This document shows positions 9,464-62,074 of a stretch of 64,000 nucleotides of DNA, piece after piece. A program made the position numbers and the translations under genes. Under the pieces are notes generated by a model. That model was not told the origin of the DNA and ran no database searches. It saw only the letters and a program-made list of their open reading frames with translations. The stretch spans positions 208,607 through 272,606 of the forward strand of contig NMRA01000176.1 of NCBI GenBank assembly GCA_002633005.1, given 5' to 3'. The stretch is from Phoronis australis. Taxonomy: Eukaryota; Animalia; Phoronida. Numbering within the stretch: position 1 is the first letter of the stretch; each line of letters starts with the position of its first letter.

Positions 9464-10270
9464 GTGAGTTCTAATACACGAAATTAAACGATCTACCATT
9501 TAAGATCTTCATCTGTGACATATTTGTTTGCGCCTATTCGTGTGCAGGATAAATGCAAGATTCAGTTTTATTTGTGAAATTTTCTACTCATCATCGATTA
9601 AGCTTAATATAAATTATGTTAATACGCTGTGGCTGGAGTCAACGGAACACCTGACTGTAGACAATGTATGAAGCTGCTGTTGTCGAATTGTGATCTCGAA
9701 TTGGCCCCCAAAGCTTCCCGGCGATATTATGTTTTTTGTGTAACTACTATTTCTTTCTGTTTAGCAAAGGTTCAGCAAAGTTGTAACTACTAATCTCGGT
9801 AAAGGTCAATGTTTGTAATATAAGATGCACTGCTGGTTTAAAGCTGCGGTCGATATCTCTGTAAACGTCTCTATTGTTCGTAAGACTACATGTACACACA
9901 GCAATATTGCCAATGCGTTGTCACTGATCTAAGCTTGTAATAGACGGAATTCTGAGCCTTCCTAAGGAAAAGGTTTCTGAAACAAACAAACGAAAAGCCT
10001 TCCGCCATTTGTCGATGGTCGAGTGTTGGATTGCCGCAAAGACAAAACAATAATTGGGGCTGAGCGAAGACAAGAATTTTGACGTATCTGTTTACGACCC
10101 ATGGGGCCACGGTGAATATTACCATTCACTATAGTTTCGTTGAACATTGCTTGGTTTTCCGGATAACTGCCATATGGGGCTTAGTATCAAAACTTCCCGT
10201 AAACGATTTTATCGTGATAAAACATTAAGTATATTCTAATTATTGTGTTTTTGTTTCACTTTCAGCTACC

Positions 10271-23761: not shown

Positions 23762-25576
23762 AGGCTTGAGACACACATGATGTTTATGAACGTTACCCAA
23801 TGCCAAATTTTTTAATGTTAAAAGGATTGTTGTACAGAGTGAATTAATATGTAGTTTGTAATGGTTTGAAGAATAGTTGTTGTTTGTTGAGAAGACAGTT
23901 GTTTCATAATAAAGTTTTATTTACTTTCGAAAGGATTGTACCAGACAATACAGTTTCTAATAAGGCCAAAATAGAATAACTGGTTCTAGTCAGTGTGGTG
24001 TTTTGACAAATTGGTGAGGAATTTTTCAGTCGTCCCCATCTTCAAAAAGAAAGTCACGTGATGCCACCTGGAATGGATCCGATCCTTCCTTTTTTAACCC
24101 AGCGCCACCTGATGCCATCGTACAAAATGGTTTCACAATGAGTATGACACATATTTTAACCAGTTATGCTATTTTTGCCTAACCTGAAGCACTAGCAGGA
24201 TGGACAAATAACCTCATATATTCAGTAAATATTCAGTGATGGCCCTAACAGACAAAGTTACAAACAAATGGCGACAACAGAATTTAACAGTTACATTCTG
24301 GAACAGTGAAAGAAACATGCCACGTTCTTGTTTACATATTTCAAAAAGACGCAGTGTATACATCAATAGCAAAATTTAAAAACGATACACAATGATTTTA
24401 TAATTCATATTTAGGAATAAAGAATTAATCTCTGGACATTCAAATGCCATTACACATTTTCAATCAAAATATGATAATTCTGGAGCGGAAGATTTTGTTT
24501 GGCATGAAATCATTTAATATCAAATTGTTTTTGCTTACTTTCAATCTGACAAAATGTACAAGAGCCTCTCAAAGAATAATTCGCATTATTAAATATTATT
24601 ATATAATTTTACAACATACAATTCTAAAAAGAAGATCAAAATGCAGACAAATTAACAGGTCTGCGAATACACCAGAACAAATCCTCCAAAATCAAGATAT
24701 CTAGCAGGCACCAGCTCTCTGCTCCGCTGCTTATAAAGAAATTCACAACCTCTCAAGATGTTATCTATAACTACTCATTTACAACACAAGCGTGTATACC
24801 CAAAGTGTTGTCTAATGAACATATTAAACAAACACCCTTCAAACATAAAGAACAAAGGGAATGTTCTAATATTTCTCATTGTCCTGATTTTACGCAACAC
24901 GTAGTGATTTTACTTAAAATAAACCCTGTCTAATTTTGTAATAAGCCAATTAATTCATCATAAACTAAGCCATATTCCACATCATTGGCTTCCTGCATAA
25001 ATATTGAATTATGGTCTCAATTTATTATTAATTGGGTCATGTGACTATGACTTTCTAGTGAAATTTAGAAAAAGAAGAAAAGCACATGGATAACAAAACA
25101 ACAGAATGAATAACATGATTAATTTCAATTATTCGATATATAATTAATGTTTAAGGTCAGATCTCGAAATACTGTTTCAATTTTCTAAAATTTCACTCCG
25201 TTTTGGTTTTATGCAACTTTATTTTTTTCCAAGAAAATCACAAAAGCCAATTTTTTCATAGTCCCTCATGCAAAGACAAAAATTTTTAAAACAATCCTAA
25301 CAGCGTTTTGGAGAACAATGCATAAAGCAAAGTATCTGAAAGTTTCATATGAATCCATTTGGTTGTTCCTGAGATATGTTTTAAAGCCAGCCAAACTTGG
25401 GCATGTCTGTAAGGTCTGACATAATCTTAAACAGCAAAAAAAAGTACCAGCAGCCCAGAGCAAACAAAATAATGTGATCAGTTCACTCATAATCTACGGC
25501 ATATGAAAGCAACGTGAACCTCATCGCATATAAAGCGAGCTATAACCTAACATAGTGTTCTCTGTCCTTCAACTCA

Positions 25577-28500
25577 TTATTTCTTCTTAATGAGATTCTC
25601 TTCTCCCACAATTACCAGCAACATCTTCTTGTAGTCACCAGAGCAGTCATCCTGAAACAACATAGTGTTCACAGTACAGTCGGATGGACAGTAGACAATT
25701 GATATGGTGGATATTCTTCCACAACTAAATGTGTGGTTTCTGAGTAGTAACATTAGAATTGTTCACTAACGGCAGTCATCTGACTCAGTCTCTGTCCGTA
25801 GCTAGATTTGGACTTTTCCATCTTAGAACTAAGTGTGTGATCCCTAAGCTTATCTTATTGGTGGATTCATCAACTGCAATTAGACCAGTGTCTGGTTGAT
25901 CTCCCCATATACAAAACTGCAAGAAGTGTACTTTGTATTCAGATATTAAGTTACTCCCTTATATGTGAGCAGTGATTTTATCCAATGTTTTGCAGTAATT
26001 GGCAAAAAAGGCCTAATTCATAAAGGCACGATACTTCTTCATATACAATGCCAACCTATTAAGACTGCCAAGCATGGGATGGCTCTTTCATTCAATTAAA
26101 CTACAAACTAAAAGTATTCAGATGACAAAACGGACAGGAATTCCCGTCATCACGGCTGGGCAGAAGCTTAACTAATCATCAGAGTAGTCTTCCCTCACGA
26201 CCATAAATGAAGGGAAGTAACATCCGTCATGACCTTAGCCTTAGAAATATCAACTTACAGCAATGAACTGTCCAAGTGTCTGGTTGTAGCTAGTCTGAAA
26301 CTCTTCCTTTATCTGTACCATATCAATCTCACATCGTGATATCACAATTCGACACAAGGTGTCATCGTCTGTTCCAAGTCCCTTCATAGTCTTGTACAGC
26401 TCGTGGGCAAAGTAACCTGCTTTGTTCTGCACACAGCGAACTGTAAGGGATAGCAACATTTTGAGCAATAGAGCATTTGAATAAGGTTTCCTTAACACAA
26501 GCTTTACTACGGCAGCAGGTATAAACTCACCTTGCATCAGAGAAACTAACTTTTGCTGCTGTGAAACTGATTTCAGCTTGTTCTTTATTCAGGTGAGAGG
26601 AGATTTCTAACGTTGGAAAGGACTCTTTGTTATTGCCTGATACCACTGCCTCCGAATGAAATGAGTTTGTTCTCAACCAGCAAAGAACTTTAAGTTCTTC
26701 CCAAGCCAAGAAACAAGTTGAGACCAGTTTGTAATTGAGTTCTATCAAAAGTTTATTTTTTTGACATGGATGATGGGTTGATAACATGATTAGACATCAA
26801 ATCTCACCTTACTTTTGTTGGTGATTTCTTAAGCTTGTGAAATGTCATTTAAAAGGACGAGAGGTCAAACTTAGATCTACATTTTGAGTTGTTCAAAATT
26901 TTGTGAGTGCAGTGGGACTGTAATGAAGGACCCTAAATACTTCAAAAACATTCTTGACGAAAACTGCAATTTTTCTGATAACATATTTTTGCATATTATT
27001 ATTTGGTAATTAATTTACTTTCACGGTTTCCTGAATGAAATCGTGGATACTTAATCTCAACTTGCGAGTAAAAGGTGTTTCTGGCATCTAAGAAAAAGGA
27101 TACACTACAAAATTAAGTCAAATCAGGGTTCATGTGGACGTACCTATGGCAACCATGCCAGTCTTGAGGTCACCAGACATTTCGCTCTTAATGGCCTCTT
27201 CAATGTTTTTCTTGGACAGTTTCTGGTACTCCTCAAACACTGCTCGCAGGTGAGGATAACTCCTCGACACCAAGATCACATTGAATCTATGGAAAAAAAA
27301 ACCCGACTCACAGATGACGGATCAACTGTACAACTCACGGGTGAAGAAGTTGGGTTGAGTACCAATATTTGAAAATTTGTACAATATGTATACCAATACT
27401 GCCAATTTGATACGGTCGTTTGACACCCATCAAGTTCACTAAAATCAACTGACAAATGGTTGAGTGTAACATGATGACCTTGTAAAATGCTGTGTAACAA
27501 CAATGTTCACATGATTAGCTACAACATTTATCAAAACTGAAAGTGTCAATTCTAAAACAAATCCATCAATTTCATATAAAGAGGAGGCAAAATATGATCA
27601 TGCTTTAGATCATCCGGTCATATTTCTCCCAGTCACACTAGATGTACTCGCATTTCCTTTAAGAGTTGTATTTAAACACGCTATTAAAATGACAATTAGA
27701 GGTTAAACTTCCCATTAGGCGCATGTAAACCAGAGTTTAAATGCTAGTAACTGCAACCAGGGCTGTGTACTGTAGACCCAACACATAAGTCATGCCCTTG
27801 CGATGAAAAATCTTCAGTTATGGAATGCAAACATTGAATTCTAACCCATAATTCATGTATTATATCCCATAATTCAACATTACAGCCTCACTGACTAATC
27901 ACGTCTGATCAGTGGCAGCCATTTTGTTCGGTTATGCTAGTAAGCTCTCAAGCATACGTGTGCAAAACACTCGCCTTTCACTCACGTGACTTTACGTGAT
28001 CTTTATGGCATGAAACATGGGTCTACGAATTGCACCCCTACGACATTTCAGATCCCCACAAAATGCTTCCCAGAGATGTAATGACTGCACATGATCCTTG
28101 TGTGCCACCACCAAGAGAATTGGATTAACAAACACTTCACACAACTCAAGGAGAAGGTGACTTCTCACTCAATTAGCAAAAAAAGTTATGATTGATTACC
28201 TCGACTCATCAGTTCCCCAAGATTTCTCGCCCGCATCAAACAATGCCTGGGCATCCTGCTGTGCCTTGGTTCTGTCAAACTCTTGGTTTTCATCACGGTT
28301 AGCTTGCAGTAGAGCCACCAGGAGGCGCTTGTAGTGTCCAGATGTCTCCGATGTAATGGCTTCCTCTAGATCCTTGCTGAACACTATTAAGAGGGACGAA
28401 AAAAATTTTAAATAATCAAATACGTAACTATTTCCAAACCTTTTGTAAAGAACTGGGTGGCATGAAAGTTCAAGTTATCATCTCCCATGGATCATACCAA

Positions 28501-31500
28501 CAACATACAAATTAACCACTATCAATGTGTAATTTTTCTAAACTGAAATGCAGGAAGTCTGTCCAATTACATTTATATGACACAGAAACTTTTTTCGCGT
28601 CCCACCCAGGATCTGGGTATCAAATCATAGTTATGTAAAGACAATGACGAATTGCGATATGCACTATAGTTTGATAAGATTCTTGTACTCAATGTGGGGC
28701 AATGGTGTGACAAGAGTCCAACAAGATTTGCCTGAATGTGACACCTGGTGAATTTCTAGTGACGTACTTTTTGACAAAACAATTCATTGACAAAAATTGT
28801 ACTCCACAATAAACACAACTTTGAAAGTACAGCAGTTGTCATCAAACATCATTTCTGAGTAAAGCAGAAAGCCATACCAAATGTCATTCGGCAATAGCTA
28901 TCGTGCAAACCAAGCAAAGTAAATTTTCATGAAAAGATACTTTAATTTGTTGATAAATTTGACCAAAAAACGAAATTTCACTTGGCCACCATGTTGTGTC
29001 CCAAACTGAGGAATTTTTAACATTAGTAAATATTGAAAGAAAACAATTTCCACATTTTTGATTTTGGCCCCAAATTGAAAAACTTTTACCACACATGTCA
29101 TTCACGAAAGACAGAACGTACATTTCTTGTAGGACGCCTTGATCTGCTCCAGCTGAGCATTTGTCCTGGTACACAGTATCTCTATCAACACTTGTTCGTC
29201 TGTTCCAGCACCCTGGAAAACAATACAGCAGATCAGTATTATAATAAATGTCATTAACATGGTAGTAAAATTATCATTGTTTTTATTACCATAATTGAAT
29301 GACTCACATGAAAGTATCCAATGTCTCAAACTGAGAGTGAAAGAAACGGCAGTGCATCCATATCAACCTAGCCCATCTTCAACAGTGAGAAATTGGACCA
29401 AAGGGAAACACTCTTTCATGCTCTCACAACACTAAAGAGTTATAGGCTGACTGTTTCCCATTAAATTGGAACTTGTATAATAATTCCTTACCTCTGTGAT
29501 TGCTTAGTCAAATTAATTAGAAACAAAAGACATAGCTGCAATGTGAATATGAAGTGGGTTGAAAATTGCCTAATGTTTTTAAGAACAGTTTTGTATTGAA
29601 AATGTTCCACGACTGTAAATCACTCAACCATGTCTAGTAGGTATCGTGACATGGCTATGTGACCCCTCAAGGCAAGCCATTAGTGAAAAGGCCACTTATT
29701 TGCAGAATTTCTTGATTCCTTAATTTACAAGTTGTCAATGAATACACTGCAGTTTGTTTTGCCTAGATGATGTTTAAATAGTATTGTCATTTAGTTCCTG
29801 CTATACATTAGCATAGTTAGGAGCGTGCAAATACATGTTTAAGACAATATCATGCATGCACAGAGGAGTTTCTGGTCCAACCCTTCAAAAACAGACAGCA
29901 GACAATGGTCATCTTGCTGTGGCAGCAACTTTCTCCAGCTCACAACTGTCATGTAAACAGTCAACGAAAAAATACACCCTTCATTTGAACACAGAAACAC
30001 ACACTTGATATGTGAACACAGGAAATACACCACAACAAAGTGGGCAGACTCTTGAAGGCTACTTAGCTAATCCTCCAAGATTACATTACACACGACAGTC
30101 ACACTACAAATCAATCTCACTCTCCATCTCAAAAATCACATGGCATGCAATATGGCCCTAACCACTAAGTTGACAATTTTCAGGGGTGTCGAGCTCACTC
30201 GGTCCCGCCTCACCTTTTGCCACAACCCTGAGCCCTTACCTTCATAGCCTTGTGCAACTCATTAGCATCAAAGTCGGCTGGCTGCATGCAGAATCCGAGA
30301 CAGAGAGTCAGAAAATGGCTACTCAGCTCACTCTTGAGTTCCTTCATGAGATCCTGTTGACACAAATAGGATATGGATTCAATGAAATATCAATAAAAGA
30401 TTCGATGACAATAAGGTGCACTAGTCTTCATAAACAAGTTCACAAAATTTCTTCTCAGGAAAAATCAGTGAATTAAGCAAAAATGTCCACCTAATGCAAA
30501 ACTGGTTTCGACATATTTTTGACCAGTTTCCCTTTGAATGTTTTCAAACAGCTCAAATTCAAAATGGCGCAATTTTATGGAGTCAGGCAAAACCTTCACC
30601 ATGTAAGCCAATGCGCCACAAAAAATGTTAGTTCAGAAGCTTTAAAATACCACACATCCCAACATATGCTACACACAGTAGGACAAATCCAGCCACTTTC
30701 CCAAAAGTCCATCCGTTACATATTAGTAAATTTGCCCATCTTTTTCATTGCATATGTTACGGTTAAGCAGAACCCTACAACGTTCAAATTGGTCAAACTT
30801 CCAAACATATCTCAGACATGGCTTACAAGATTCAAAGGAAACTATCAGATACTATGCACTGTTCCTCAAAACGCTGTTAGAAATTATTGCTTATTGATAA
30901 CTTTATGCAAGTGTGGTTATTAAAAATAAGACTAGTGTGATTTTTATGAAGAAAACAATCATTGAAGATGCCACTTTTTGCAACTGATGTAGTTGTCTTT
31001 TGTGCCAAATTTTAGTAAAAAGACTGATGGTCACATGACCTACTCCATGGTACAGTTACAAGTTTGCTTACTTTTAGAAAGTTAGTGCTTGAGTATATGC
31101 AAAAATGATTCTGACATTTGGCTTATTTCTGTTTCCAACAGCAGATATATGGCGCAAGATAATGGGTCTATTGTGTTGCGTCCAGGGCAGAACTAACAAA
31201 ATGGGGTACTGATATGGATTACTTTTTATACAATAGGCAGGAGCTATTTACAACCTTTTTATAGCCTGTGATTGAGGCTATTACCCACCCGACTACAAGT
31301 CAATTAGAAAGATAAAACCAGCTTCAGTGTGACCATTTCTCTTGGTGCGTTCACACTGGTTTAGATAACAAGCAGACTTCATAACACTCCATAGATAATT
31401 GAGATAGGTACGTGCAGTAAATCAAGATATGTTCCCACCAAACTTGCTTAGCTACTGAAATAAATATCGGAGGAGAATATGACCACAGAAGTTGCAAGTG

Positions 31501-34473
31501 TATGTACCACACAAAATATAAGGTTAGAGTCTCTGAATAGGCCAAACATCTTAAGAAAATGAGCGACCAATTACCAAGTATATTGCTCTGTCATAAAGTG
31601 ATTTGGTTAGTTTCTTTACACACTGCTGCAGCTCTCATTTTCAGTATGATTGACATGAAATTTCTACACAACATGTATCTTGTGAATAGCTCAAGCATTA
31701 CTGTTTCTGGGTGGAATCATACACCAGAAGGTGCTGTGATGGCCATTATTATTATGTGAATGGATCTCTTCAAGAGCCATCTTGAGTGCACGTAGCATCA
31801 GGCATTTTTCACAACAAAAATTGTTTATTGATTGATTTCTTGTTCCGCAGTATCCTTTGGTGGATCACTCTGAAACTTGGTGAAGAATAGATCTCGTCAA
31901 GAGCTATAACATGTGTATCATTTACACACTTACGATGCTTGCTAAGAATGTTACAGATGTGGCGTAAACTTTTCAATACTATATTTGAAAGTACTAGCAA
32001 TCTTAGAAGCCAGTCAACCAGTCAATTTGCCTTAAGCTGGTTGGTTGAAGTGTCACTGCAGTGTTCTTTTCATGAAGAGAGCCTCCTAGATCTTTCTCGA
32101 ATGATCACTGTTGATGGCAAGACAACAAGTTTTGATAAAATTCATTGTTTCTTATTTCCACAACCAGAAATGCTAGGTCCAATAGATTTGGAAGATGGCT
32201 GCCAAGGTACTAAATGCTGGTTGTGAAAATAAGAAACAATCAATTTGTACTCTACCAACCTGATGGAATTATTTAGTGACAGCAGGTTTTGATGCTAGCC
32301 GTCTGTGCTGACCAGTTGCTTAATGCAGTGTACTCCCTAGGACTGTTCGCCCAAAACACCTCAAGGAATGCTAACAGTTATTTAGAAACCTGCCTGGACT
32401 GACCTGCTATAAAGTGCTTACCTTTCCAAACATGGTCTTGAATGTCTTGACAATCTCAACTCTCTGGGTACACGATCGCCGTGCCAACACATCAATAATC
32501 GCTTGCTCGTTAGTTCCTACAAAATCAAGAATTATTGTTGACATCAGTGCAACAGGCAGTGACGTCCAGTGGGATTTGAACCTATGACCTTGTGAAAAGG
32601 AGGGAGACACTCACCCTGCTAGGCGACACTTACTCCTCAGTTCATACAGTACCTAGCTTATAGTTTCCTCATAATTTGAACAAGGACCGAACTAAAACGC
32701 TAACGTTTCTTAACTTACAAATGTTATAACTAAAAGCTGAAAGCTGCAATGTAAAATGTAGGCCTAAATACAAAAAACATTTCTGATTCGGATTATGAAA
32801 ACATCTAAAAAATCTACTTTGTTCCACTAAAAGGAAACTTTACTTTTAGTAGGAAAACTGAACATTGTTCAGATTTTGGTGCATCCAGATTGCCAGATAC
32901 CGACAAAACTCCACATCAAATTTTGAATTTTGTTTGCGAAATACATACACCTTTTTAGTGGTTTTAAAAAATCATTTAATGTATTTTTGTTGATACCACA
33001 CTAAAAACTAATGCCTAACAGATAACAGAATTATATTTTACTTGCCTACCTACATGTAGTTTTTGAAAGAAGTTGAAAATATTTTTGGTTAAAATTAGTG
33101 TTGTTTTCTGTCCGATTTTCTTCTGAGTTTTCGCATGAACTTTGATAAGACCAAATTTCAAAAGCATTTTTAAAGTACTGTATCCACCTCAGGGGAATGG
33201 CTTTTGTCTTCTGCCATTTTGCATATTCTGAACTGAGCAGGAATAGAATGTGACACAATATTGAATGTGACACAATATTGAATATGTGACACAATATTGA
33301 ATGTGACACAATTATACTGAATGTGACACAATATTGAATATGACACAATATTGAATGTGACACAATATTGAATGTGACACAATATTGAATGTGACACAAT
33401 TATACTGAATGTGACACAATATTGAATGTGACACAATATTGAATATGTGACACAATATTGAATGTGACACAATATTCAATGTGACACAATATTGAATGTG
33501 GCACAATATAGAATGTGACACAATTATACTGAATGTGACACAATATTGAATGTGACACAATATTGAATGTGACACAATATAGAATGTGACACAATTATAC
33601 TGAATGTGACACAATATTGAATGTGGCACAATATTGAATGTGACACAATATTGAATGTGACACAACATAGAATGTGACACAATATTGAATATGTGACACA
33701 ATATAGAATGTGACACAATATTGAATGTGGCACAATATTGAATGTGTCACAATATTGAATGTGTCACAATATAGAATGTGACACAATATTGAATGTGACA
33801 CAATATTGAATGTGACACAATATTGAATGTGACACAATTTAGAATGTGACACAATATAGAATGTGACACAATATTGAATGTGGCACAATATAGAATGTGA
33901 CACAATATTGAATGTGACACAATATTGAATGTGACACAATATTGAATGTGACACAATATTGAATGTGACACAATATTGAATGTGACACAATATTGAATGT
34001 GACACAATATTGAATGTGACACAATATTGAATGTGACACAATATTGAATGTGACACAATATTGAATGTGACACAATATTGAATGTGGCACAATATAGAAT
34101 GTGACACAATATTGAATGTGACACAATATTGAATGTGACACAATATTGAATGTGGCACAATATAGAATGTGACACAATATTGAATGTGACACAATATTGA
34201 ATGTGACACAATATAGAATGTGACACAATATTGATTGTTTCTGGTAACCGACACAAGTGATTTCTTACAAAGTTTATGCTCTATCTACGCCTCGTACATA
34301 AAGCCTTTGATAAAATAGGACTTAGGCTGCAGGATAAACTTGAAAGTGCGTGTTTGGCATTTACGTTAATTTCAATCTGGTCTGTACTTACCAAATCCTT
34401 TCATAGCCTTTCTCAGAGCCTCAGCATCAGCTTCACTATTGAATCCACCAAATGGCTTCACTGTCCCCTCACA
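25577..34473 (-). CDS. Annexin core domain (four repeats), 8 exons
   Basis: [96 protein letters not shown]; C-terminal DDCSGDYKKMLL. Confidence 0.97.
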
Positions 34474-37400
34474 CTGTGGGTAAAATAAATAAAATATATG
34501 TATTATTAATAATTATTGTCAATTTAATATCAATTAAAAAAATTCACTGTTCTTGTCTGTTTACTATGTAGCATGACTGAAACTAGATCAATTTGCAACA
34601 TACGGAAAAAATTCTCCAGTCTCCAGTTTTGGAGAGTGGAAAAAGTATTATAATTGTATTCAAGGTCGCACCTTGTATAATGCATAAAAATTATAAATAG
34701 GCAATATTGGCCATCTCAAATTCACAAATTACAAGAAAGGCAGGTAAATTACCCAATCCAATTTTATTCCAAACAACATATTGCCAATAGTCATGACAAC
34801 TGACAGACATTGCATGCAAGAACTAGCTGCTCTGTTGGTTGTCATAATAAAACTGAAAACATTTCATGAATCTCCAAGGCAACTGAAACACTGAGGAAAA
34901 GCTGAGCTCACAGATGTGTTGCAATGTTATTGAATCCATTCTAATGAGCAAAGTTGCATTTGTCAAATACTCGTAAACAAAATTTGAGGAGTGCAACACT
35001 ATATGGTCAAGAAATGACTGGGTATTTTTGGTGTTTTAAAAAACACTAGTTAACTTTCTTCTGCTTCTGAAATTTCAAGTTCAATTTGTTTAAGACACTG
35101 ACCTGTGCAGTTGCGGAGGCCATGGCTCAGACAGCAGGCCGAAAATGGTCACAACACACAAACAGCTTGACTAACATACAAAAGCCCACTCAGACACAGC
35201 AACACATTTATAACAGTGTGTGGCAAAGTAGCTAGGTCACTGTCACACAGAGATGCATACAACAAAAGGTCATGAGCACAGGGTCAGGAACTACATCAAA
35301 AGGTCATGAACCCAGGGTCATGGGTAAAGAGAAGTGTGGAAGACACACCCACCCACTACTTATATGTTTACTACTTTACTGTAAAGTCATGGGATTTTGA
35401 GAGGTACAAAGTGCAAGGAATTTGAGAGTATCACCTGTAACGCTGGTTATTTTTTTGTCAAATTACTCTTTGTTTTCTAGTAAATTGCAATCCAACCAAT
35501 TTGCACCAACTTTTATTAAAAATGTTTTGGATGTAACACAATGTAAAGTGGTTTAAAATGTTCAAGTTAACTCACAGCTTCAAATACTAAAAACCTGCTC
35601 ATCAGCTAGTCAGAATAAAGCTGTAATATGCCTACATTTTGTTAATTAAAAAAGACAACCTTTGGAAAAATAGAAAAACTTACTACCAAGGTTGATGAAT
35701 TTGATGTATATTAACTCAGTAGAACTTTGTTAAGTATGATAATCAACTAAGAGTCAATCAATGATCTAGACAGGAAAAGCTATAAAGATGCAACAAAAAT
35801 TGCATGTAAGGTGTAGGATTGTACCAAATACGAAATGCATGTGTTCTGAAGTCTCAATTGCCTAACCCTATCCCTAAACCCAACCCCAACCCTACCGTTA
35901 ACCCCAACCTTAACTTTAATCCCAAGCTAGTCTCAAAAGGTACAATCCTGCGGCTAATAAAACTGCTGAGACAGAAAAACATGAACAGAACAATTGTGAC
36001 ATCAACATCAAGTCAGAAACTTGCAGACAAACAAACTGCAACCTCCCAGACATACAACTATATAAAGATGGCAAACTAGGTGAATAAATCTACAAAAATT
36101 ACATTTGGCTGACGTAAAGACAACAAGAAGTCTTCTAGTCATGACAGACATGTGGTAGTTCTGCAGTTATGAATAAAATGGGTGCTAAAATTGTCATTTT
36201 TTAAGTTTTCAAAAAGACTGAATACAGTGCTATTAGTTATAAAAAATACCAAGATTAAGTTGTTCTGAAACAAAAGAAGCTCAATTTTTGCGATGTAGAA
36301 TTTCATTTTAATTTTTGTAGTGAAAATTTCATAACAAAAAGTCAAACCTCTCCCCGCGTATGCTGTTAGGAATTAGACGAACGTGTAGATGAAAAGCCAT
36401 TCCTACAGCCCTCTCATGCTCACCTCATACTCTTCCATCTCAAAGAAAGGTTCCGGGTCTTTTGGTCCCTCAACAACAGGCTTCTTCTTAGCAGGGGCGG
36501 ATGCAGGTTTCTTCTGAGGGGGAGGTGGCGGTGCCGCACTCGTTGTTGAAGGCGGAGGTGTCTTCTTCGGTTTGGCTGGAAGAAACCCAGAGCATTTTGA
36601 GTATTACGGTAATTATCTACTTACTGTATTTTGAACAAAAATAATTGCCAAAGTTGTCATTTTCCATTTTTCTAAGGTTCATTATCTTGATGTAAGTAAT
36701 GAGAGCTTCACCAAGCTTTATTTTTGAGGAAAGAAAATTTAAATTTCACTTGCTTGTCATATTGAGAGCTAAATAGTTGAAAAGTAACTGTGATTAAAAA
36801 TAATCTCTCCTAGAGTACACAAAAAGATAGAAAAGTACATGAATTATAACAGACAAATATGTAGCAATTTTAGACAGACGTTTTCTCTCATTAACGTTTG
36901 CAAAGGGAGCAATGACAGACTGAAATGGATAACTGCACATCAAAGGTACAATGTCTCTGAATATATGCATCAAGCAGGTGAGTGCAGCTGGTTTTCTTCA
37001 CAACATTGAATGTACTCTGTACGTCAAGTCATCAATCAAGGCTTCATTTTTGCATCATTTGATGCAATTAAGCTGAAGAAGGCACATATTGAGTTGATTG
37101 GTACGTTTTCGTATAAAACAAAAGAAGTGAAAATCATCCACTAATTTGTGTCATCTTCCATATTTTTCAGTAATCAAAGTGTAAAAAGATTCTTCTCTTT
37201 TATCAAAATTTACTTTGAGTTTCATTCTGTGCTATTACAACAATGGACTCGGGTTACACGGAACCCAAAATTTTTGGAACGTGGGTCCCCTAAACCCCAA
37301 TGTTTGGAAAATTTTTGTAGGTCAAACATTGTGTTGTCCCATACGTTTGTCGGTGTTTTTCATTAAATATTGTTTTGTGCATCTGGGAAGGATGTTTATC

Positions 37401-40400
37401 ACTGGAATAATTTAAGAATTCCAAGACAGATGTTGTGTTAATTAGTTGGTTGAATTTTCATTCATTACAAAACATCATTCATTACATCACAATCCATCAA
37501 ACAAACACAAACTACACTCATTAGTTCACTCCAACATCTTAAACTGTAACTCGGTAGTAATTATTTTTCAATAAAGTTCCAGGGTTTAAAAGACCAAAGT
37601 GTCCAAACTTGTTATGAAAGCAAAAGGTCTCAACGGCAAAACTTAATTGTTAGACAAGTGAACACAAAAACATCTGTGAGTGTCATTAGTCTAAAAGCTG
37701 CCACGTTAATTTTATTCAGTGTCTGTTTCATGAAAGAAGACTTTATAAGACTTAAGACAGAAATTTGGTCTTACGCTACCACTTGACAGTTACTGAATAA
37801 AGGTTAAGACAATGTATTATATAGCACATCCCAACCTCAAAAAAATTCATCTGAATTATCTTAGAAACAAGCAATCAAACGTGACGTACTCCCACAGAGA
37901 CGTTGTGTTTTTCCACAAGTGACATTTAATTTACAAATATCTGTGGAGCATAAGACCAAACCCTTGATTAAAAATTCAATACGCAGTCACTTTTCATCAA
38001 AACAGACCCCAATTCGCTTAGTATCAAATTTGCGGAAATGAAAAAAGTATGTCTATGCATAGAATTCTATGTTAATGATGCTTTGAACCAACCTTGAGTG
38101 AAGAAAACTTTTGACTTGGAACACTTTCCATGAAATTGGTCTAAAATATACATTTTACACAGGGCAAAAAAGCCCTGAGTGGTTCAGCATCGAATTTAGG
38201 TTGCGATAAAAGATAACATGACACTTGAATGGAATTCCAAATTATGTGAAGATGCAATAAGTAACTTTGATTTAGATCAGTTACCATAAAAACCCATAAA
38301 ATTGGTCTTGACACTTTACTTGCATGTAGTCTGGGGAAGTTCCTTATTGCATGAGATAACGTTCAATAAGTTGCCTTGTCTCAGAATGTCATTTTGTGAA
38401 CAAACCATCGGGTTTCCTTTAAGACCAGAAATTACTTGTGACATCAACCTATACTGAACCACTTGAGGCCTGCTTTACTACGCCGTCCTAAGTAGCCTAA
38501 TGTGAAAGATAGTTTCTTTATACACAAGGATAGTTAAAGCCCCTTCAAACAAAAACCACAGGAACGTTAAACTAAAAACATTCAACCTTAAGCACAGAGC
38601 AAAAATTCAGTCAAAATCAAGCATTCTGAGTGTGTAAGGGCCCTCAGTGCCTCTATTTTGGGGTCTAATATCGGCCTCCATTCCCCTTCAGTGATTGAAA
38701 AGTTGCCCCAAAGGATAGAATCATCCCTTTAAAACATAAATTATGACTGCTTAAGGTTTCACTGAAGGTTGGTGTCTGAGGTGGCATTATCCACTCAACC
38801 AAAACATTGTGTCTCTAAGAAGGCACAGGCACCGTTCCCCTCAGGTGAGCAAGGGCCGTGTACGTGATCAGGATTGTGCATTTTTACACTCGCTTACCTA
38901 ACCGGTTACACATTGCCGCTATTTCTAAAACATGGAAAAAACATGTTTCGATTTTCCTGTATACTTGACTCATTTCAAAAATGCAATCTATAGTCCACTA
39001 CACATGAACAGCATAGAACACAAAAATCTTTCTAGCAGTATAGGACTAACTGTAATCGGGTAAAATACCATTTCCACGTAATAACATGAAACTCAGGTTA
39101 CAACAAAGATGAATAGTAATGACTCGTCATTGCAGCAAAATCCTATTGACAACACAGTCCATTTTGTACACTTTTCAATAAATTACCCATCACTATTGGT
39201 CATGATGTACTAAAAGATAAGCCACAGAATTCCTTTCACTCAACTTCAGAAAATGACAGCAAAACCATGAATCTAGTTTAAACTTATTCTAAAATGACGC
39301 TCTTCATCATGTTATCAAAATGTTTTCAAAATCACCAATGAAAATGAATGTGGAATTTTCATAAAAAATTGATTTTCTGATTGTGCACCTACAAAATGGC
39401 CGCCTCAGAACAGCATTGAACTCCACTATTTATTTATTGCCAGTAAAGAACACAATTACAGCACATACCAAAACTATTCATACAGAAGGACCCAGAATTC
39501 CTGTCCAATCAAATTCATCATAAGAGTAGACTTCCCTCGTGACCAAGAATGAAAGGAAATTGACAGGAAAATTAGAAAGGTAGCTTAGTTGCTCTGTAAT
39601 TTGAAATTCTACAGTTAAAGGGATACCAGACTCGATTTGGGCCTATTGACAGAATGAAAAATGACATTTCAATCCAATTCCCTGAAACAATGCTCTATAA
39701 CTCTCGATAACCCTCAGACATTTTGAGAAAAGTTTGGTAAATGGGCAAGCGTGACCCACAGTCTCAGCGAATTACAAAGCACCTGTGAAACGAGACCACC
39801 CACCAACAACCATAGCAATCTGTGATATAGGGAGCATATTCAGTTTTAAGTTGATTTTTGATACAAGAATGGAGAATGCATTAGCAGGTGACAAAATAAG
39901 GATTGGCTAAAATCATCAAAACAGGGTTTAGTATCATTTTAACCCAAATAGCCATCATGACGGGGAATGGAATTTTGATTATTTTTGTCTCTGAACACAT
40001 GAGACTCTTTACATGTACTACACTGATGGAAATAAAGAAAAGAGTTGGGCAGGGCAGTAGTCAAGTATGAGAGTCTCTAATTCTGAGAACCAGTTTGATG
40101 CGTGTTATGCAGAGGAGAAAACAGGTTCTCAAATGTGGAGCCCTCCCTCCCATTACCGAAAGAGTGTCTTCAATAACATGCATCCAGCAGCAATGACAGG
40201 AAAAACCTCAAAACATTAGGTATGATCTCTCACATTTAGTGCACACTGTAGTAACATATTACCGTGAAGCAAAAACTATGCACTTACGAGTGGCAGTTTT
40301 AACAGGAGACGGCTTTTTCTTTGGGGCACCAATTTTAGCAAGGCCAACTGTTAAAACATAACCGTCATCAGCTTCCTCAAAATCAACGGACACAATCTGG

Positions 40401-43400
40401 AAAAGAATGAAATTGCTACTGCTTTTAAACGGTCATGTCATCTGTTGCAGACAACATACTGATAGTGCTTTTGCCTAATTGTGTTTTTGAACAAAATTTG
40501 TTTGTCGACATACAGACACATAGCTAGGGCGATGTTTTTTAAAAGAAAAAATTCTAAAAACAAACTAAACAATTAAAAAATTTAAAATAAAAAAACTAAA
40601 CAACTTTACAAATTGTTTAGGTTAGATATAAATCAATTTTGAAACTAGTTGGCGTTTGACAAGTATAATTTAAAAAATCTCTTAATTGTCATGATTTCCT
40701 TTGTTGAAGTTACTGAAAAAACTGTGGATAATGAAAAATATAATGTACACAGAGTAAACTGAGAGAACGCTCTTTGTTTTCTCCAAGACTTTCGGATTGT
40801 TTTAGGCTGAACATTACTACGAGTACTACACACTTCAACCAATGATACTTTCCCAATTCCCAAAATGTGTGTTTAACTAACATTTTTCACTTACATAGCA
40901 CAAATATGGTGTACAAATGACAATTTTTTCAAAAAAAATCAAGAAAATTTTAGTCTATTGCTAACATGGCTTGTACTGTGTAGACGTCTTAAAATCAGCT
41001 TTTGGTAAATTTTCCATGATTTTCAGAAATGTAATCAGCATTTGGAAAATGGAAAAATGACAGTATTGGAAATTATTTTTGTGCAAAATAAATGGAGAAT
41101 GATTGTATTTTTAGTAGTCTAAACAACAGAAAACATTCTACTACAACTCTTTAGCATCGTAGGAGCACAAATGTGTCTTTCACTTGACCTAATTTCAATT
41201 TTTGAGTTGCATAAAAAAGCTTTAAAAATTATCTGGTCCTGGTTGCATGCCAGATCAACACAATGACATTGTATTATCACACATCACACGTTAACTATGC
41301 ACTTAGCATCATTCAACAACCAATCTTATCCACGGAATAAAATTTGAAGTTTTATGCATATGGATAGGTCTGACTCTGGCCTGATGTCAAAAACATTGTT
41401 CAACAACGGCAATGATGAACGCGATAATGTAATGTCACTGCTTTAATACATGTTCTTCCATGCATGCTGGCACCAGTGAGCAAAATGAGCGGTATTAAAA
41501 GGAATGAAACGCAATGGTGTTCTACCACAGACACTGTGAGACATTGGAGATTTTTCTGCGAATACCCCACCACACAGTAGTGGCAGTTTGAATGCATGAT
41601 GGTCAGATGAAGAGTAATTTCACTATCTAGCTGGATCTCGCTTATATATCATAAAATGGCTACTGTAAGTAATAGTCCATGAACAGCAAGACAACCACCC
41701 ATTACCTGTCCCATCTTGGGTTCTCCAACTTCATACTGGAACTGTTGGTCCTGACGACCGTAGTTCAACAGGTGTGCGTAGATGTGTTCTACCTGCTTTT
41801 TCCAGTTTCCTAGAAACACATAGAGGGCAGTGTGAAAATACACACGATGTATGAGAAAGTCAACAAAGGATGATAATAGGCTGACGGTAAATTATTTTGC
41901 GGGACACAAAAAAGATCATTTGGCACAAATAACCAATCCACAATGTTTCCAATGTCAAAAACATTCATTGCCAACAGGCACCCATGAAAGGCCTATTACA
42001 CAATACATGTAGGTGTTGATAGTGAGGTGGATAGAATCTACAAGAAAGGTGCTTGACGACTTACAGAATGCAACATTGAAGAGATCTAGCCTATCAACAA
42101 GTGCTGCTGGTAAACAACTTACAACAATCATTTAGCCGTGGAAAATAATATCACATTGATTTTATTCCTAGCATAATCAGTTCAGAATGGTCTTTAAATA
42201 CAAGAAATCCATACACAGTTAGCATTTCTATTATTTGATGTGACAATATCAATGTAGTGGTCCTCCTCTCAGTGCACTGAAATCCAACATAAATACCAAA
42301 CATAAAACATCAGGACTTGCGCCATTTTATCCATGGTGGATCATGTATGATAATTAAAGAGAGATAGTTAAGCCCACATTTTAGAGTTTGCTCCCATGGG
42401 TATGTGGTTAAGACAACTTTGCATTGGACTTGTCTTAGTCACAGTGGCTAGTCTCAACTTGTTGAATACCAACAGTGTTACATTAACAATTATGTTCCTT
42501 TGAATAGAACACAATTTGTTAGCCAATTTAGTTATTACCAGATTAATAAGTGATGTGGAGCTATAGTCAAGAGTTCTATGCATACAATATGCGCATAAAC
42601 CGTCTTGAAATCTAGAATAATCATGTAAAAACAAAAAAAAAAACACTTCTTTACCATTCCCTGGACTGACAGCATTAAGTTCCGGCTCTGCGGGACGCAC
42701 AGGATATTCAATAGCTCGCTGAGGAGGGGGTGATGGTGCCTGTGGTGCCACCTCCTGGAGGGTCTGTCGGATGTCTGCCACTGTTTGCATACGACTCTGG
42801 TCAATCCTCTGCAAGACATTAAAAACAATACAACTAAATTTACAACATAATTTTAATACAGTTTGTGCCAAAACTTCCAGGAAATAAATTATGATGACAA
42901 AGTATTACTCGATTACCTCCAACAGGGCCACCCCAAAAAGACTGCTCTACCTCGCGACCAGGCGTCTGTTTCATGAACTGAAGATTTTAATACAAAAGAT
43001 TGGTCTTACACTCCACACAACTAATTCAAATCTCACACGTGCAAATTTAACTGAAAAAGTCTCTGAGAATATACTCGTTACTGGTAGTCAGGGATCATTA
43101 CCATGAATTACTTCACTTTCATGAAACAGGTCCATAGCAAGCAGTTGGATGACACAGAAATCTGGCTCAAGCAAGGCCTGACATCAGACAAACACCATGT
43201 ATTGGCCAAATAACAATAGGACACTTGACACAGCAATCTCTAACAAAAGACTAAGAGTAAACAGGTTGGCATAACATTACCAACACCCCATTCAGAGTTC
43301 ACTGCACCCAGTCTACGAAATGTCTCGTGGTTTTCCCGCCGCCCATGGACCAAGAAAATCATGCACTATTCTTCTAAATAAAACTTTAACTATAGCAAAT

Positions 43401-46400
43401 TTTAAAAGAAGTCAACATACTTTTTCTGTTCATTTACGACTGCACAAAGTGACACATACATGGATACAAAATGAATGTGACGAAGATTCCCGCCTTTTGA
43501 GAACATGACATAGTGGTAAAGTGTATTAATTTAAATAAAACCAAATATAGCACTTCGTAGCGCTTTATGGGCTTACAGTACATGTCAAATGTAATCAAAC
43601 AAAACAGCACTTCCCGTCACAGTGGATAGTGACCTGTCACGACAGGTAGCTATACGATGATGGTGAATTCTAACAGCACTTCCCCATCACAGTGGATAGT
43701 GACCTGACATGACAGGAAGATACACTCTGAATTCTAACAGCACTTTGCCAGCATGACGGGACTTCCATTTGTGCTCAGACACCATGACAGAGAAGTCTGG
43801 GTTATCTTGTCCGATTATTTCTGGCATGTACTGCAACATCAACATTTTCTTTTACATAAGAAACAATAAAGGGACTGTCACAAGAAAAATAAAACTGATA
43901 CAATTGCGAAATGAAAAACAGTTCCAATATTTTAGTTATGAAAACCCATTTGATGCAAAGTCATAGCCACATCTCTCTCACAAGAGACCATCTCTCCCTC
44001 TCCCTCTCCCTCTCGGTCAGTGTTCCCTACTGAAGACTGGACTCCCTCTCCCTCTCCCTACCTCTCGGTCAGTGTTCCCTACTGAAGACTGGACAAAGAC
44101 TTTCAATAATGAAACTCACCTGTATCATTTGTTGAGTGAGAAAGCCCATGTCTGCCTGAGGCTTGGGCACGGCATACGGCGGCGGTATGCCATTCATGCT
44201 GGGCTGACCGTATGGCGTGAAGCGTGCAGAGTTGGGGTCTGTGTAAAGTCCCTGGAGACCCTCGGGTGCACCACCCCATACATTGATTTGCGTGCCTGAG
44301 TAGTTTGTCGGGTTGAAAGGGCCCTCAATATCTACAAAAACGGAAAGCCATTGACTTACTGATACATTTCCTCATTGCTTAAAACACAAATGATTGGAAA
44401 TGGATTCTAGACTTGAGAAAAACTCACGGGTTGTTTCTGCTTCAGAACTGAATTCCTAGTCATGACAGACAGTCAAGACTCCAAGCTATTTAATTCTAAT
44501 TCAAGGAAAGCATAAGAATGCAATGATGTCGCTTTGGAAGGGTAAATATGATTGTGAAAAAAGTTGCTCTCTTTTTACGTCAGATCATTAGTTTACAGTA
44601 CTATGATCTTAACTGATATTGTCAAACCTTATCCGAGCAGGCTAACTTGGTTGCATAAAGCTGATTGGTACATTAATGGAAGATGGTGTGTGTTCTTCAG
44701 TGTAAAGTGTGATTTACCACAAATGCGCAGTGAGAGTGGCTCAACATCAATGACTAAATGAAGAAATGCAAAAAAGTTTTACCTTGTTCACCCCTGGGTG
44801 TTCCATTGCTACCAAAAGATGGTTTCTTCTTTTTGTCTTTGTCTTTGTCCTTGTCTTTGTCCTTGTCCTTATCTTTGTCTTTCTTCTTTTTGTCATCTTT
44901 CTTTGGAGTGGAGACTTTCTGAACAAGAGCATTGTGGGATAATGTGAATCTTGATGACAACAACAAGCATTCTTAGCTGTGACCATCTGTCAGCACAGCA
45001 AACAAGAATGACCAATTCGCACGAGTTGCAGTAAACAGTCCTAAATTTAGCATTTAGTATGGCGGACATCTGAAATTTCATTTGAAATTTTTCTGACAAC
45101 AAAAATTCACGGCAAAAGAAAGTTGATTTCAAAACCTGAAGCAAAATTTTGAGCATTTCAGCAGTTGACTTAATCAGGTGTTGAAAAACTGCAACTTAGG
45201 CAATTATTTGTATGCAAAATTGAAAAGAGGTTGCAGCCTACCTAGTACGTTCCCATGATGAAATGTTAGAACAAGATAAGAGCTTGGCTTTACCGCATAC
45301 ACTAATGGGAATTGAAACATGCCCATAATGTAAGACAAACAACTGACTTAGCTTCTTGTTACTTGGCAACTTTTCTTCCACTGTAATATGGCCATAAGAT
45401 TGTGTGTTCTCACCAGGAGGAAGATAGACAAGGCAGGGGCGTTTTTCTAAGGGACTTCATAGGCAAAAGTTCATTTGGCTAAAAATCTACTACTGAGCAG
45501 GCTGCAGATTTATATCTCTTGGCTTTTAGTTAGAGGTAGATTTGCTGACATATAGTCCTAGCCTGATTTGGTGAAACGGGTTGAGTCATTCGTAGGCTGA
45601 GTTTTAGTGAAAAGGTCACAAGACAATTGACTCGTCCACAAATAGCCTCATGATCCGTCGCTTAAAAGGAGAGTTCACAAAGACATCCTATCTGCTGTCT
45701 CATGAGGAATGTGCAAAACATCAATGTGCAAAATGGTCTATGGGAAAAAATGCATGATTTCAAAATATGACTACTACGAGCATCACACACAGATAAACAT
45801 ATTTCATGTCTCCAAATCAAAATCTGGGGACACACGAGTACATAGCTATACAACTAGTACAGTGGTACTCAAATTTGAACACTGACTTATAGCACAACCA
45901 AATTCGTGGACCACTACTGTACCATGTTTTTCTTGTCTTTCAGTCGTTTGTTTCCCACAGAGCTGACGGATGAGATTGAACTGATGCTGCTAATGACGGA
46001 CGAGGCATCGTCAAAATCCTCGATGAACTCATCAACGCAAAATGTCTTTGTGACCACAGCACTCTCTTGTAACCCATCTCTGAAAGAAGAAAAATGACAT
46101 CGATTGTGAACATAATATGGAAGAATTTATTCACTTAGTTATTCTGAGTGTTTTCCATTAACCTTTCTTCTTTCACACATAATAACAGCCCAGTGCTTTT
46201 CAAAGACTTGTTACTTTTCTGTAAACAATAGAAACATTTACAAATGTTGTTTTATGACATCTACAAAGTACATATCATACTGGTAATAGACCAAAATTGT
46301 TTTAACTTTTATTTCTGTGCACAATTTTGGTTTTTCCCGGGATGCCGTTTTTTAGGATTACTAAAAGAGAATGGAAAGACACGTGGCTTTCTGTACTTTT

Positions 46401-47213
46401 TGTACCCAGGTGAAAGATACTGATTGGTTAATTTCTAAATGTATAAATTTATAAAAAAGTTCAGTTCCATTCAGATTTAGGCATATTATTTGTCAAACTC
46501 AAGCGCACTAGATTTAAAAGATGAATGGGTTGGACTTTGACCATTAAAAAGCGACCACAGTACCTAGATATGGCGATGACCTTAAGTGTCCTTTTACCAG
46601 GTTTCAATGTAAAAGGTCCAATGTACTTGAACGTAGATTCTTTTCCTGAAACTTTCAACTGGAATGGATTGGGTTTGGTGCCATCTGTGCTAAAGTATAT
46701 CTTGCAAAGAGGAGACTCTACAACAGACAAATGAAGTTAATTATTTTAAAAACTTTAGCAATGATATTTCAGCATGAGGAATGTTGTTTTATTAGAAAAA
46801 AATGGGTTATGTATAGAAAAACTATAATACTACTCCACAATGTACTACCAAATTTTATTTGGTCAAATAAATGTTGGCATGAATAAAAATATTTAGACTT
46901 TGTTTTCAATCAATCAAAGAAACTTGTGTTTCCAAATAGATGTCAGATAACAAAGCGCAGTGAAACAATGAAATAAATAGAAAACATTTCGTAAAATTGA
47001 TCATGGAAGCCAACACTTTCCACCATTGTCATGTACCTTGAAAATGATTGTAAAGTTTTTACGCAGGGCTGAATTGTTGGTGGATAATAACATTCCCTAA
47101 CCTGTTGTAAGCTCAATGTATGTTCCTGAGTCAATATGACTAGTGGGCCTGCCAGGAAGAGGATCCCGAAGGGGTATAATCTGCGGAGGAATGATTGCAC
47201 CGGCACTGGGCAT
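25577..47213 (-). CDS. DZANK1-like N-terminal modules fused to an annexin core (long isoform, 751 aa, 17 coding exons)
   Basis: Minus-strand exons, all AG/GT and phase-compatible: 47213-47102, 46717-46564, 46079-45923, 44918-44783, 44331-44120, 42808-42655, 41809-41706, 40396-40288, 36575-36424, 34473-34392, 32516-32422, 30353-30240, 29212-29122, 28383-28200, 27286-27144, 26440-26259, 25651-25577 (2256 nt, no internal stop). The 36424-to-34473 junction is inferred from phase, not from transcripts. Confidence 0.8.
33241..34233. repeat. Minisatellite, 17-bp unit TGTGACACAATATTGAA, about 57 copies, in an annexin intron
   Basis: Directly visible. Variants include TGTGGCAC, ATATAGAA, +AT and +TAC insertions. 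It generates the spurious SHSILCHIQYCVTF ORFs. Confidence 0.98.
35103..35123 (-). CDS. Candidate alternative first coding exon (MASATAQ) giving a short 328-aa annexin
   Basis: Strong Kozak gagccATGG, 7 codons, then a CAG|GTCAGT phase-0 donor matching the phase-0 acceptor at 34473. Confidence 0.65.
36424..47213 (-). CDS. DZANK1-like region (N-terminal Fn3-associated/CHB_HEX_C-like domain plus the SPG-x-G-x-WKKQ module), 9 exons, 430 aa
   Basis: MPSAGAIIPPQIIPLRDPLPG..HIDSGTYIEL..IYFSTDGTKP..TFKYIGPFTLKPGKRTLKVIAISRDGLQESAVVTKTFCVD, and AVSPGNGNWKKQVEHIYAHLLNY..F...VGEPKMGQIVSVDFEE. Both resemble conserved blocks of vertebrate DZANK1 as recalled. Confidence 0.82.
39615..39942 (+). mobile_element. 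Copy of the 6915-7275 repeat family
   Basis: ttaaagggatacc..caatctgtgatatagggagc..aaatcatcaaaacagggtttagtatcattttaa. Confidence 0.65.
43604..43770. repeat. Short tandem repeat (~62-70 bp, 2-3 copies)
   Basis: aacagcacttccc-tcacagtggatagtgacctg-ca-gacagg repeated. Confidence 0.75.
43994..44093. repeat. Local tandem duplication (~50 bp x2)
   Basis: ctccctctccctctcc..ctctcggtcagtgttccctactgaagactggac occurs twice. Confidence 0.8.
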
Positions 47214-49435: not shown

Positions 49436-50000
49436 CTTTGTTTTCACCTGTTTATGTTGTTAGGCACTGGTGTTTATTCGTTTCTCGCAAGGGAGAGCAA
49501 GATTCCGGATGTGACGTCAGTGTACTTCCACATTCTTCCACATGAGAGCGCTGCGGAGGAGTCTCAACTCTTGTATCCGCGATAGATTAGACCGCCGAAC
49601 TTTGAAAAAAGGACCGTTTTCACTCTGTAAACATCTAGAACTTGCTTCCTTCAAAGTGTGATGACAATAGTCTTAACTAAGGCTATTATAAAACTTGTTA
49701 TTAAAAAGTAATCGGATCTCCATGCAATTTTTAAAAGCATACATTCTTTCAAGTTGTTTTTACTCAGTGATCGGAAACCGGATCAGTCCAAGCGCTCTTT
49801 GCAGGCCCGGCGTCCATCGGTTTCAGGATGCCAACGTGGCAATGCGAGTTCTTCTTGAAATGTGACATCTTTACCGTTGGTCTTAACCCCATCAAAATAC
49901 GGACTTTGACAGAAGACATGACCTCTGCAAGCCAATGTACTACAGTGACCCGACGGTATCACGGTCAAGTGCGGCGCGGCCGGGTGTTTTCAGTGAAGGT
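49436..50000. promoter_or_regulatory. Putative bidirectional promoter between the DZANK1-annexin gene (-) and the NAC-alpha-like gene (+)
   Basis: Minus-strand donor AAG|GTAATT at 49436 (non-coding exon spliced to the acceptor at 47321). ETS-like TTCCGG at 49503 next to CRE TGACGTCA at 49512-49519. CpG-richer zone. Plus-strand donor candidate GAAG|GTATCG at 49998. Confidence 0.5.
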
Positions 50001-50948
50001 ATCGTACCGGGAGTTTAAGAGCCCAGTCATCATGGATTCATTTTCATTTCCTGAACTGGAGTCGCGAGCTTTACAGAAGGAACCAGCGAAGGGACAAGAT
50101 ACATCAGATATTGAAGAAATGACAGGAATCCCCGCGAACGCACCGTTTCACGGTACTGTCTAACCGGCACCGAAGTCTTTCGAGTGCTTGTGATTATTTG
50201 AGTCTAAATTCTTCTAATTTGGAAGATTGACATCCTGCAATTCGCAGCGTTCGCAATTTCATGATGATATTTCCGATCGAAATCTTGGTTCCGGAGAAAA
50301 ATTCTGCAAAATGCTCGCATGAGCCAGAGCGTGTNGAAGTGTCCTTTGTTGCTCACAAAAGATTTCGGTGGATTAATCGGCACAAGACCTGCATATGCAT
50401 ACGTATATAGCCCCATTGTATGATCTGTGTAGGCCTAACGGTAATAAATCTTAGCCTGTTAGTTATTGCGGTTTTAGTCCCCGGCGGTCCTGTTTTGTGG
50501 TGGGGCGGTCATGTTTTTGGGTGCGTCAGTCCCATTTTCTGGTGCGGCGGTCCCATTTGATCCCCGGAGGTCCTGTTTAGAGGACCGGCGGTCATGTTGT
50601 TTCTCACCCGTGTACATGTAAGCTCGAGTTTGCTCTAATGGAGGCCAAATACAACAAACCCTTCCGGGTCGAGCTGCAAGTGTAAAAGACAACTTTCAGT
50701 GACTTAATCTTCAGAAATTGTCGTGCCAGTTTAGGCAAGTTGCGTCAATTTGCAACCGACAAAGCTGATTCTTAAATGACACAATTCAGAAGTTGCATCA
50801 ATTTCGGCCACAAACAAATAAAAGAATGATTGACATCGGAAAGTAGCTTGAAACTTAATTCCATACTCTGATATAGGAAAGGCGTTTTGCCGGCGGTACT
50901 GGTGATCGCAAACCTCACAATCCAAATTGTTAGTTGTTGTTTCAGACC

Positions 50949-62074
<11,126 letters not shown>

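Follow-up and report, generated by a model that had tools for sequence, protein, structure and literature searches.

Evidence for an expressed alternative first exon in an old DZANK1-annexin fusion gene of Phoronis australis

We consider it highly probable that the minus strand of the window (the whole 64,000-nucleotide stretch of Phoronis australis DNA analyzed here) carries an expressed alternative first exon, through which one old DZANK1-annexin fusion gene gives rise to a plain 328-aa annexin as well as a predicted 751-aa protein, the latter likely at the ciliary base. RNA junction reads revealed that two different exons, ending at 35103 and 36424, are spliced to a single acceptor at 34473. 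Because both exons are joined to the same annexin acceptor, one locus makes the plain annexin and the predicted fusion protein.

Transcripts joined to the first annexin-core exon

The RNA data comprised three raw-read runs (X1-X3) and one contig set (X4), chosen by species label. The reads of X1-X3, mostly 95-99% identical, and the contigs of X4 were aligned to positions 34300-36700 of the window. The initial annotation had proposed an exon with seven codons that splices in phase 0 from 35103 to 34473, and had named reads across this junction as the check to be made. Such reads were detected in all three runs (16, 11, and 33 in X1, X2, and X3, respectively; 60 in total), and two contigs of X4 carry the same joint. 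The joint 36424-34473 was represented by 11, 7, and 0 reads (18 in total) and by no contig of X4. The orientation of all junction reads fits that of a minus-strand transcript in a stranded library. Loose read ends at 34391 carry sequence resembling the next core exon. The proposal of one locus with isoforms of 328 and 751 aa was likewise borne out, since both joints occur in reads and the small exon is not the only one spliced to 34473; the 751-aa chain is modeled from the open frame and homology.

The isoform ratio differs between samples. It showed no difference between X1 and X2, whose junction reads together number 27 short and 18 long, whereas X3 yielded 33 short and none long (Fisher p=1.4e-5). 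In X3, exon 36575-36424 has no depth in the orientation of the minus transcript, and none of the loose ends listed points there. A few X1 reads run antisense across this exon. Opposite-orientation reads were also seen over 36325-36700, where a 36-nt piece (36637-36672) common to other transcripts is probably a repeat.

The alternative first exon of the short isoform (35103..35190, minus strand) contains a 5′ UTR and seven codons, and is defined by the 60 junction reads and two contigs reaching 34473, by the depth profile, and by the gene model. No joint or loose end was found on its 5′ side among those listed. Because no listed splice enters it, the small exon behaves as the first exon of a short transcript. 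Read depth is 12.7-24.9 in the bin 35110-35190 and 0.8-6.7 in 35191-35271, and falls to zero from 35353 to 36324. The main depth ends at about 35165-35190, tapering, with a minor extension in X2 (10 reads at 35222) to about 35270-35300; no sharp start was called on the exon among the read ends listed for 34300-36700. The upper bound of 35330 given initially is too wide for the main transcript, because most depth ends near 35165-35190 and none remains from 35353. We did not accept two contig ends, at 35163 and 35165, as sites of initiation, since they match k-mer bubble edges around allelic differences.

The ATG of the small exon lies at 35123-35121, codon 7 ends at 35103, and a GT donor in phase 0 follows from 35102 on the minus strand; joined to 34473, the exon opens a 328-aa annexin frame. 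A TATAAA box (35207..35212, minus strand), from its sequence the predicted core promoter of the short isoform, is located 20-45 nt upstream of the point where most of the small-exon depth stops. In the 19,381 intron bases of the gene, nine ATG-to-donor candidates have an equal or better donor score; of these, only that at 35123 combines a Kozak context with a TATA box no more than 150 nt away, a criterion set post hoc. The sequence alone is weak evidence for the small exon, and it is the RNA that decides. We rejected the exon as a coding cassette of the long form, because an in-frame TGA (35129-35127) stands 3 nt 5′ of the ATG and none of the seven upstream AG acceptors checked yields an open in-frame exon. 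Further 5′, an ATG whose context is poor begins a frame of 16 codons (35177-35127), in frame with the main ATG and closed 3 nt before it; this frame is a possible translational brake on transcripts starting further upstream.

Two other readings of the transcripts were weighed. One holds that there are two separate genes, a stand-alone annexin starting from 35123 and an upstream DZANK1-like gene that occasionally reads through into it. X3 and the X4 contigs, which show the short splice alone, would fit such an arrangement, but the long splice accounts for 11 of 27 junction reads in X1 and 7 of 18 in X2, no stop interrupts the upstream part ahead of the junction, and several phyla share both the fusion and its junction motif. 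This reading is largely refuted, and we give it hardly any chance. Very improbable, too, is an unseen upstream non-coding exon or trans-spliced leader preceding the small exon. AG dinucleotides at 35188, 35170, and 35165 do lie close to the depth ends, and four weaker loose ends fall outside those listed, yet the listed joints and loose ends include none on the 5′ side against 60 junction reads, the depth declines gradually instead of breaking off, and there is a TATA box upstream.

Parts of the long isoform and distribution of the fusion

The gene model consists of nine upstream and eight core exons, with GT-AG borders at all 16 introns, and gives a long protein of 751 aa. The eight exons above 36575 are modeled from the open frame and homology. 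Exons 1-3 (47213-47102, 46717-46564, and 46079-45923; 45923..47213, minus strand) hold the start ATG and, by Pfam and homology, a DZANK1-type Fn3_assoc domain (PF13287, E 1.9e-07) that spans the first 105 residues. This block is 44% identical to bat DZANK1, 58% to snail DZANK1, and up to 75% to fusion homologues. Exons 4-5 (44120..44918, minus strand) encode a Lys/Asp-rich stretch and a GTQ[IV]N motif recognized by its conservation. TQT-type motifs bind LC8 (dynein light chain), and the GTQ[IV]N motif is a candidate LC8 site. GTQ[IVT] was found in 38 of 40 fusion proteins between the Fn3 and middle blocks, where DZANK1 has GTQT; the version in the window is TQI, compared with TQT in DZANK1.

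Exons 6-8 (40288..42808, minus strand) encode a predicted helix and, on the basis of homology and a model of the Lingula orthologue, the DZANK1 middle domain of two helices and two strands. The middle block matches residues 430-500 of bat DZANK1 (E 5e-14), and DZANK1 (11xu) was the sole match of exon 41809-41706 among 177,635 PDB sequences (E 0.0026). In the Lingula orthologue, the two helices and two strands of the block were predicted with a pLDDT of 66-87. A homodimer prediction for the Lingula helix and middle domain scored 0.05 (mark 0.32), a value that speaks to binding in neither direction. The fold searches were taken up by annexin matches and have no bearing on the middle domain; in the Atlas, Fn3-type leads were below 0.9 and DZANK1 clusters lay below the naming bar. 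The last exon of the N-terminal half (36424..36575, minus strand), supported by the 18 junction reads of X1 and X2, encodes a Pro/Lys linker and an acidic junction motif kept in fusion homologues, and ends in a phase-0 donor. Zinc-ribbon CxxC motifs are missing from the first 430 aa, both in the long form and in all 40 fusions, whereas bat DZANK1 has eight; ankyrin repeats are absent from the long model and from the five fusion orthologues scanned.

The annexin core begins with the first shared exon (34392..34473, minus strand), whose common acceptor is set by the junction reads and the gene model. Its other seven exons (32516-32422, 30353-30240, 29212-29122, 28383-28200, 27286-27144, 26440-26259, and 25651-25575; 25575..32516, minus strand) rest on Pfam and the model. 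Annexin matches (PF00191) were obtained on four of the five core exon frames scanned, three of them above the cut-off. The core is 62-69% identical to orthologue cores, and all four repeats carry a calcium-site motif, a GxGT-type loop followed downstream by an acidic residue. The Lingula orthologue model superimposes on the annexin XII and A11 structures with an rmsd of 1.8-1.9 Å. Within the first core intron, a 17-nt unit is repeated 57 times in tandem (33246-34238). Elsewhere in the window, the plus strand carries caspase-domain exons at 3097-5704 (PF00656 matches on 4610-5029 and 5342-5704), a single long frame at 10229-11485 for an ankyrin-repeat and SOCS-box protein, and a gene at 49771-54429 with a NAC-domain exon (54238-54429) that appears to lie head-to-head with the upstream start of the fusion gene.

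The long model is 52% identical to a chiton protein over residues 1-742. A search with the N-terminal half of this chiton protein retrieved 58 proteins. Of these, 44 combine Fn3, middle domain, and annexin core, 3 more have the core, 2 are DZANK1 proteins, and the other 9 carry Fn3-type repeats but lack annexin. The best 150 of 7,452 matches in a second, representative search added Priapulus, Tubulanus, Macrostomum, Schistosoma, Echinostoma, Anoplocephala, Paragonimus, and sea stars. In molluscs, annelids, brachiopods, nemerteans, flatworms, and Priapulus, the fusion orthologues are named "annexin A6-like" or "annexin A11"; the fusion sequences are present in public annotation under generic names, with the DZANK1 half unrecognized. 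Repeat number varies, from four in the window, Lingula, and Lineus to mostly eight in molluscs and annelids and eleven Pfam matches in Priapulus.

In the careful tree of annexin cores, a protostome clade (98/98) unites 32 fused cores, including that of the window, with nine short proteins. This tree comprised 65 rows under LG+G4, with a bootstrap that had not fully settled, after seven of 72 rows (long branches, CFAP97 fusions, and a choanoflagellate) had been dropped; AU tests on the core carry no weight, since their constrained trees beat the free search. The tree of N-terminal halves sets bat and snail DZANK1, its two DZANK1 rows, apart from 21 fusions (98/94), and the nearest row to the window is Lingula, at 62%. 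Given that the fusion is present across Spiralia and in Priapulus, and that the window core falls inside the 98/98 clade, the sequences indicate that the fusion is older than the Spiralia-Ecdysozoa split. The initial annotation had suggested that a DZANK1 duplicate was captured upstream of an annexin. That the N-terminal half derives from DZANK1 agrees with its Fn3 and middle domains, but a local or recent capture does not fit a fusion common across Spiralia and in Priapulus. The nematode Plectus has an annexin core (P0125) that pairs with the Priapulus fusion core (100/96) behind a linker-like N-terminus, and this protein may be an incomplete model of a nematode version of the fusion.

Sea stars (Asterias; P0250, P0397-P0400) have a DZANK1-type protein with ankyrin repeats and an annexin core. 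The Asterias N-terminal half joins the fusions (98/94), though a grouping of Asterias with bat DZANK1 could not be rejected (p-AU 0.089), and its core fell inside the fusion clade in a quick tree but outside the protostome clade in the careful one. The DZANK1-annexin fusion may have arisen twice, because the best tree sets the sea-star core outside the protostome clade; the sea-star protein could be either an intermediate or an independent fusion. In a different combination, a Hemingway/CFAP97 domain precedes 13 annexin repeats in P0243 (Nematostella) and 8 in P0257 (Haliotis), a second case of a cilia protein fused to annexin cores.

Origin of the small exon

In our weighting, late birth or turnover of the start exon came slightly ahead of an ancestral relic, and the start of a tandem duplicate came last. 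We tentatively read the small exon as a later-born or turned-over start exon. Its seven codons carry no homology signal, and its final Gln is there because the CAG donor consensus yields Gln anyway. The initial annotation had instead regarded it as the ancestral annexin start. It might indeed be a relic, left when a DZANK1 duplicate was spliced past the first exon of a neighboring annexin in the protostome ancestor, with exon and promoter kept since. Annexin N-termini are usually short or disordered, and those of plain annexins have a median length of 7 aa (n=96), with 15 aa or fewer in 73 of the 96; a phase-0 exon of 7 aa directly before the core follows this plain-annexin pattern. The sizes of the core exons (82/95/114/91) also agree with those of vertebrate annexin A5. 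Three short-start annexins (P0402, P0137, and P0410) and three flatworm annexins that have no DZANK1 half nest in the fusion-core clade, as expected of a relic because the internal start would then have existed for long, but these may equally be paralogues that lost the N-terminal half. Further points weigh against a relic. Neither a Lineus short isoform (best match 60% identity) nor a Lingula one was found among 120 of 133 short matches listed, in a search whose lengths exclude short forms of eight-repeat species; the 10 clusters inspected held no named isoform with a short new start; and a terminal Gln, the residue that a CAG donor gives in any case, was seen in only 12 of 62 short N-termini.

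It is also conceivable, if unlikely, that the window lineage lost the first of two cores and that the small exon was the start of the second, once a separate annexin copy. Molluscs and annelids carry two cores, and it is the second of these, from Owenia and molluscs, that the window core joins in the careful tree (90/82, not starred; similar in the quick tree). Against this, two other trees put the window core beside the single cores of nemerteans, at weak support, and the 1,950-nt intron showed no trace of a further core. Whether later born, as we tentatively read it, or kept, the internal exon illustrates how a fusion gene can keep or regain a plain annexin.

Predicted function and comparison with known systems

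The intronic TATA promoter would start the short transcript independently of the upstream promoter, and the short protein, judging by its motifs, would be an ordinary calcium-dependent membrane-binding annexin. For the long form, analogy with DZANK1 suggests a role at the ciliary base. DZANK1 has been reported to bind DYNLL1/2 and to sit at the ciliary base and on microtubules, and its zinc fingers to bind NINL (PMC4617706). In a recent study, a DZANK1 dimer and an LC8 dimer are assigned to the transition-zone doublet, on its A-tubule, where a helix lies between A06 and A07 and a globular part sits on A07 (10.64898/2026.06.11.731632); the text examined names no DZANK1 residues in contact with the doublet. 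The long form keeps the TQ motif, helix, and middle domain and is missing the NINL-binding zinc fingers. It would most probably dock on microtubule doublets or dynein/LC8 at the ciliary base via these three kept elements, its annexin core would grip the membrane upon a rise in calcium, and the internal start would supply free annexin where the tether is not needed. With DZANK1 now located on the transition-zone doublet, one would expect the fusion to form a direct link, dependent on calcium, from microtubule to membrane. Other work reports that annexins at the base of mammalian cilia were cross-linked to actin and keratin (PMC13082021) and that RNAi of a planarian gene with the name dzank1 led to a reduction in dopaminergic neurons (PMC13594227).

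A more far-reaching reading, which we put forward as doubtful, joins these elements. The fusion would be an undescribed protostome linker, calcium-switched, between the ciliary membrane and the transition-zone doublets, built from a DZANK1 docking module and an annexin core; the promoter of the captured annexin would survive in the intron and switch the locus to the plain annexin in other tissues; and, with sea stars having fused independently and cnidarians and molluscs carrying CFAP97 fusions too, annexin cores would have been recruited to ciliary scaffolds repeatedly. A search of the literature by title, with subscription journals outside its coverage, found no paper on a DZANK1-annexin protein, and the words "fusion," "octad," and "eight" are absent from the text examined of an invertebrate annexin survey (PMC3795353). 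A protostome-wide annexin with the folded domains of a ciliary-base protein has been hidden behind generic names.

The long form and DZANK1 agree in the layout of the N-terminal half: an N-terminal Fn3_assoc domain comes first in both, and after it a GTQ motif, a helix, and the middle helix/strand domain. DZANK1 carries zinc ribbons and ankyrin repeats, in place of which the long form has the annexin core; the DZANK1-like protein P0053 of a snail is also without zinc ribbons (CxxC). Asterias P0250 likewise sets a DZANK1-type N-terminal half on a four-repeat annexin core and, unlike the window, retains ankyrin repeats and the TQT motif. The entries named "annexin A6-like" and "annexin A11" share the N-terminal half and junction of the window and are its orthologues, the automatic names ignoring the DZANK1 half. 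Vertebrate annexin A6 itself has eight repeats, whereas the window core has four and lies outside the vertebrate clade (in a tree without an A6 row).

The short isoform shares with plain four-repeat annexins (PF00191; A4, A5, A11, and Hydra annexin XII) a short start (7 aa here), four repeats, and calcium motifs. Unlike them, it is produced from a start that lies inside a fusion gene, and its core falls in the protostome fusion clade rather than the vertebrate A clade. Alternative first exons are a known phenomenon, and N-terminal annexin isoforms are already known, as passages of PMC9554710 and PMC13341712 describe. As in the window, one gene varies the N-terminal domain on a constant core in ANXA13a/b and in ANXA11 (505/472 aa), according to the same passages. 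Splicing of ANXA13 and ANXA11 as described there alters tens of residues, whereas the second start in the window leaves out a 430-aa module that originated in an unrelated gene.
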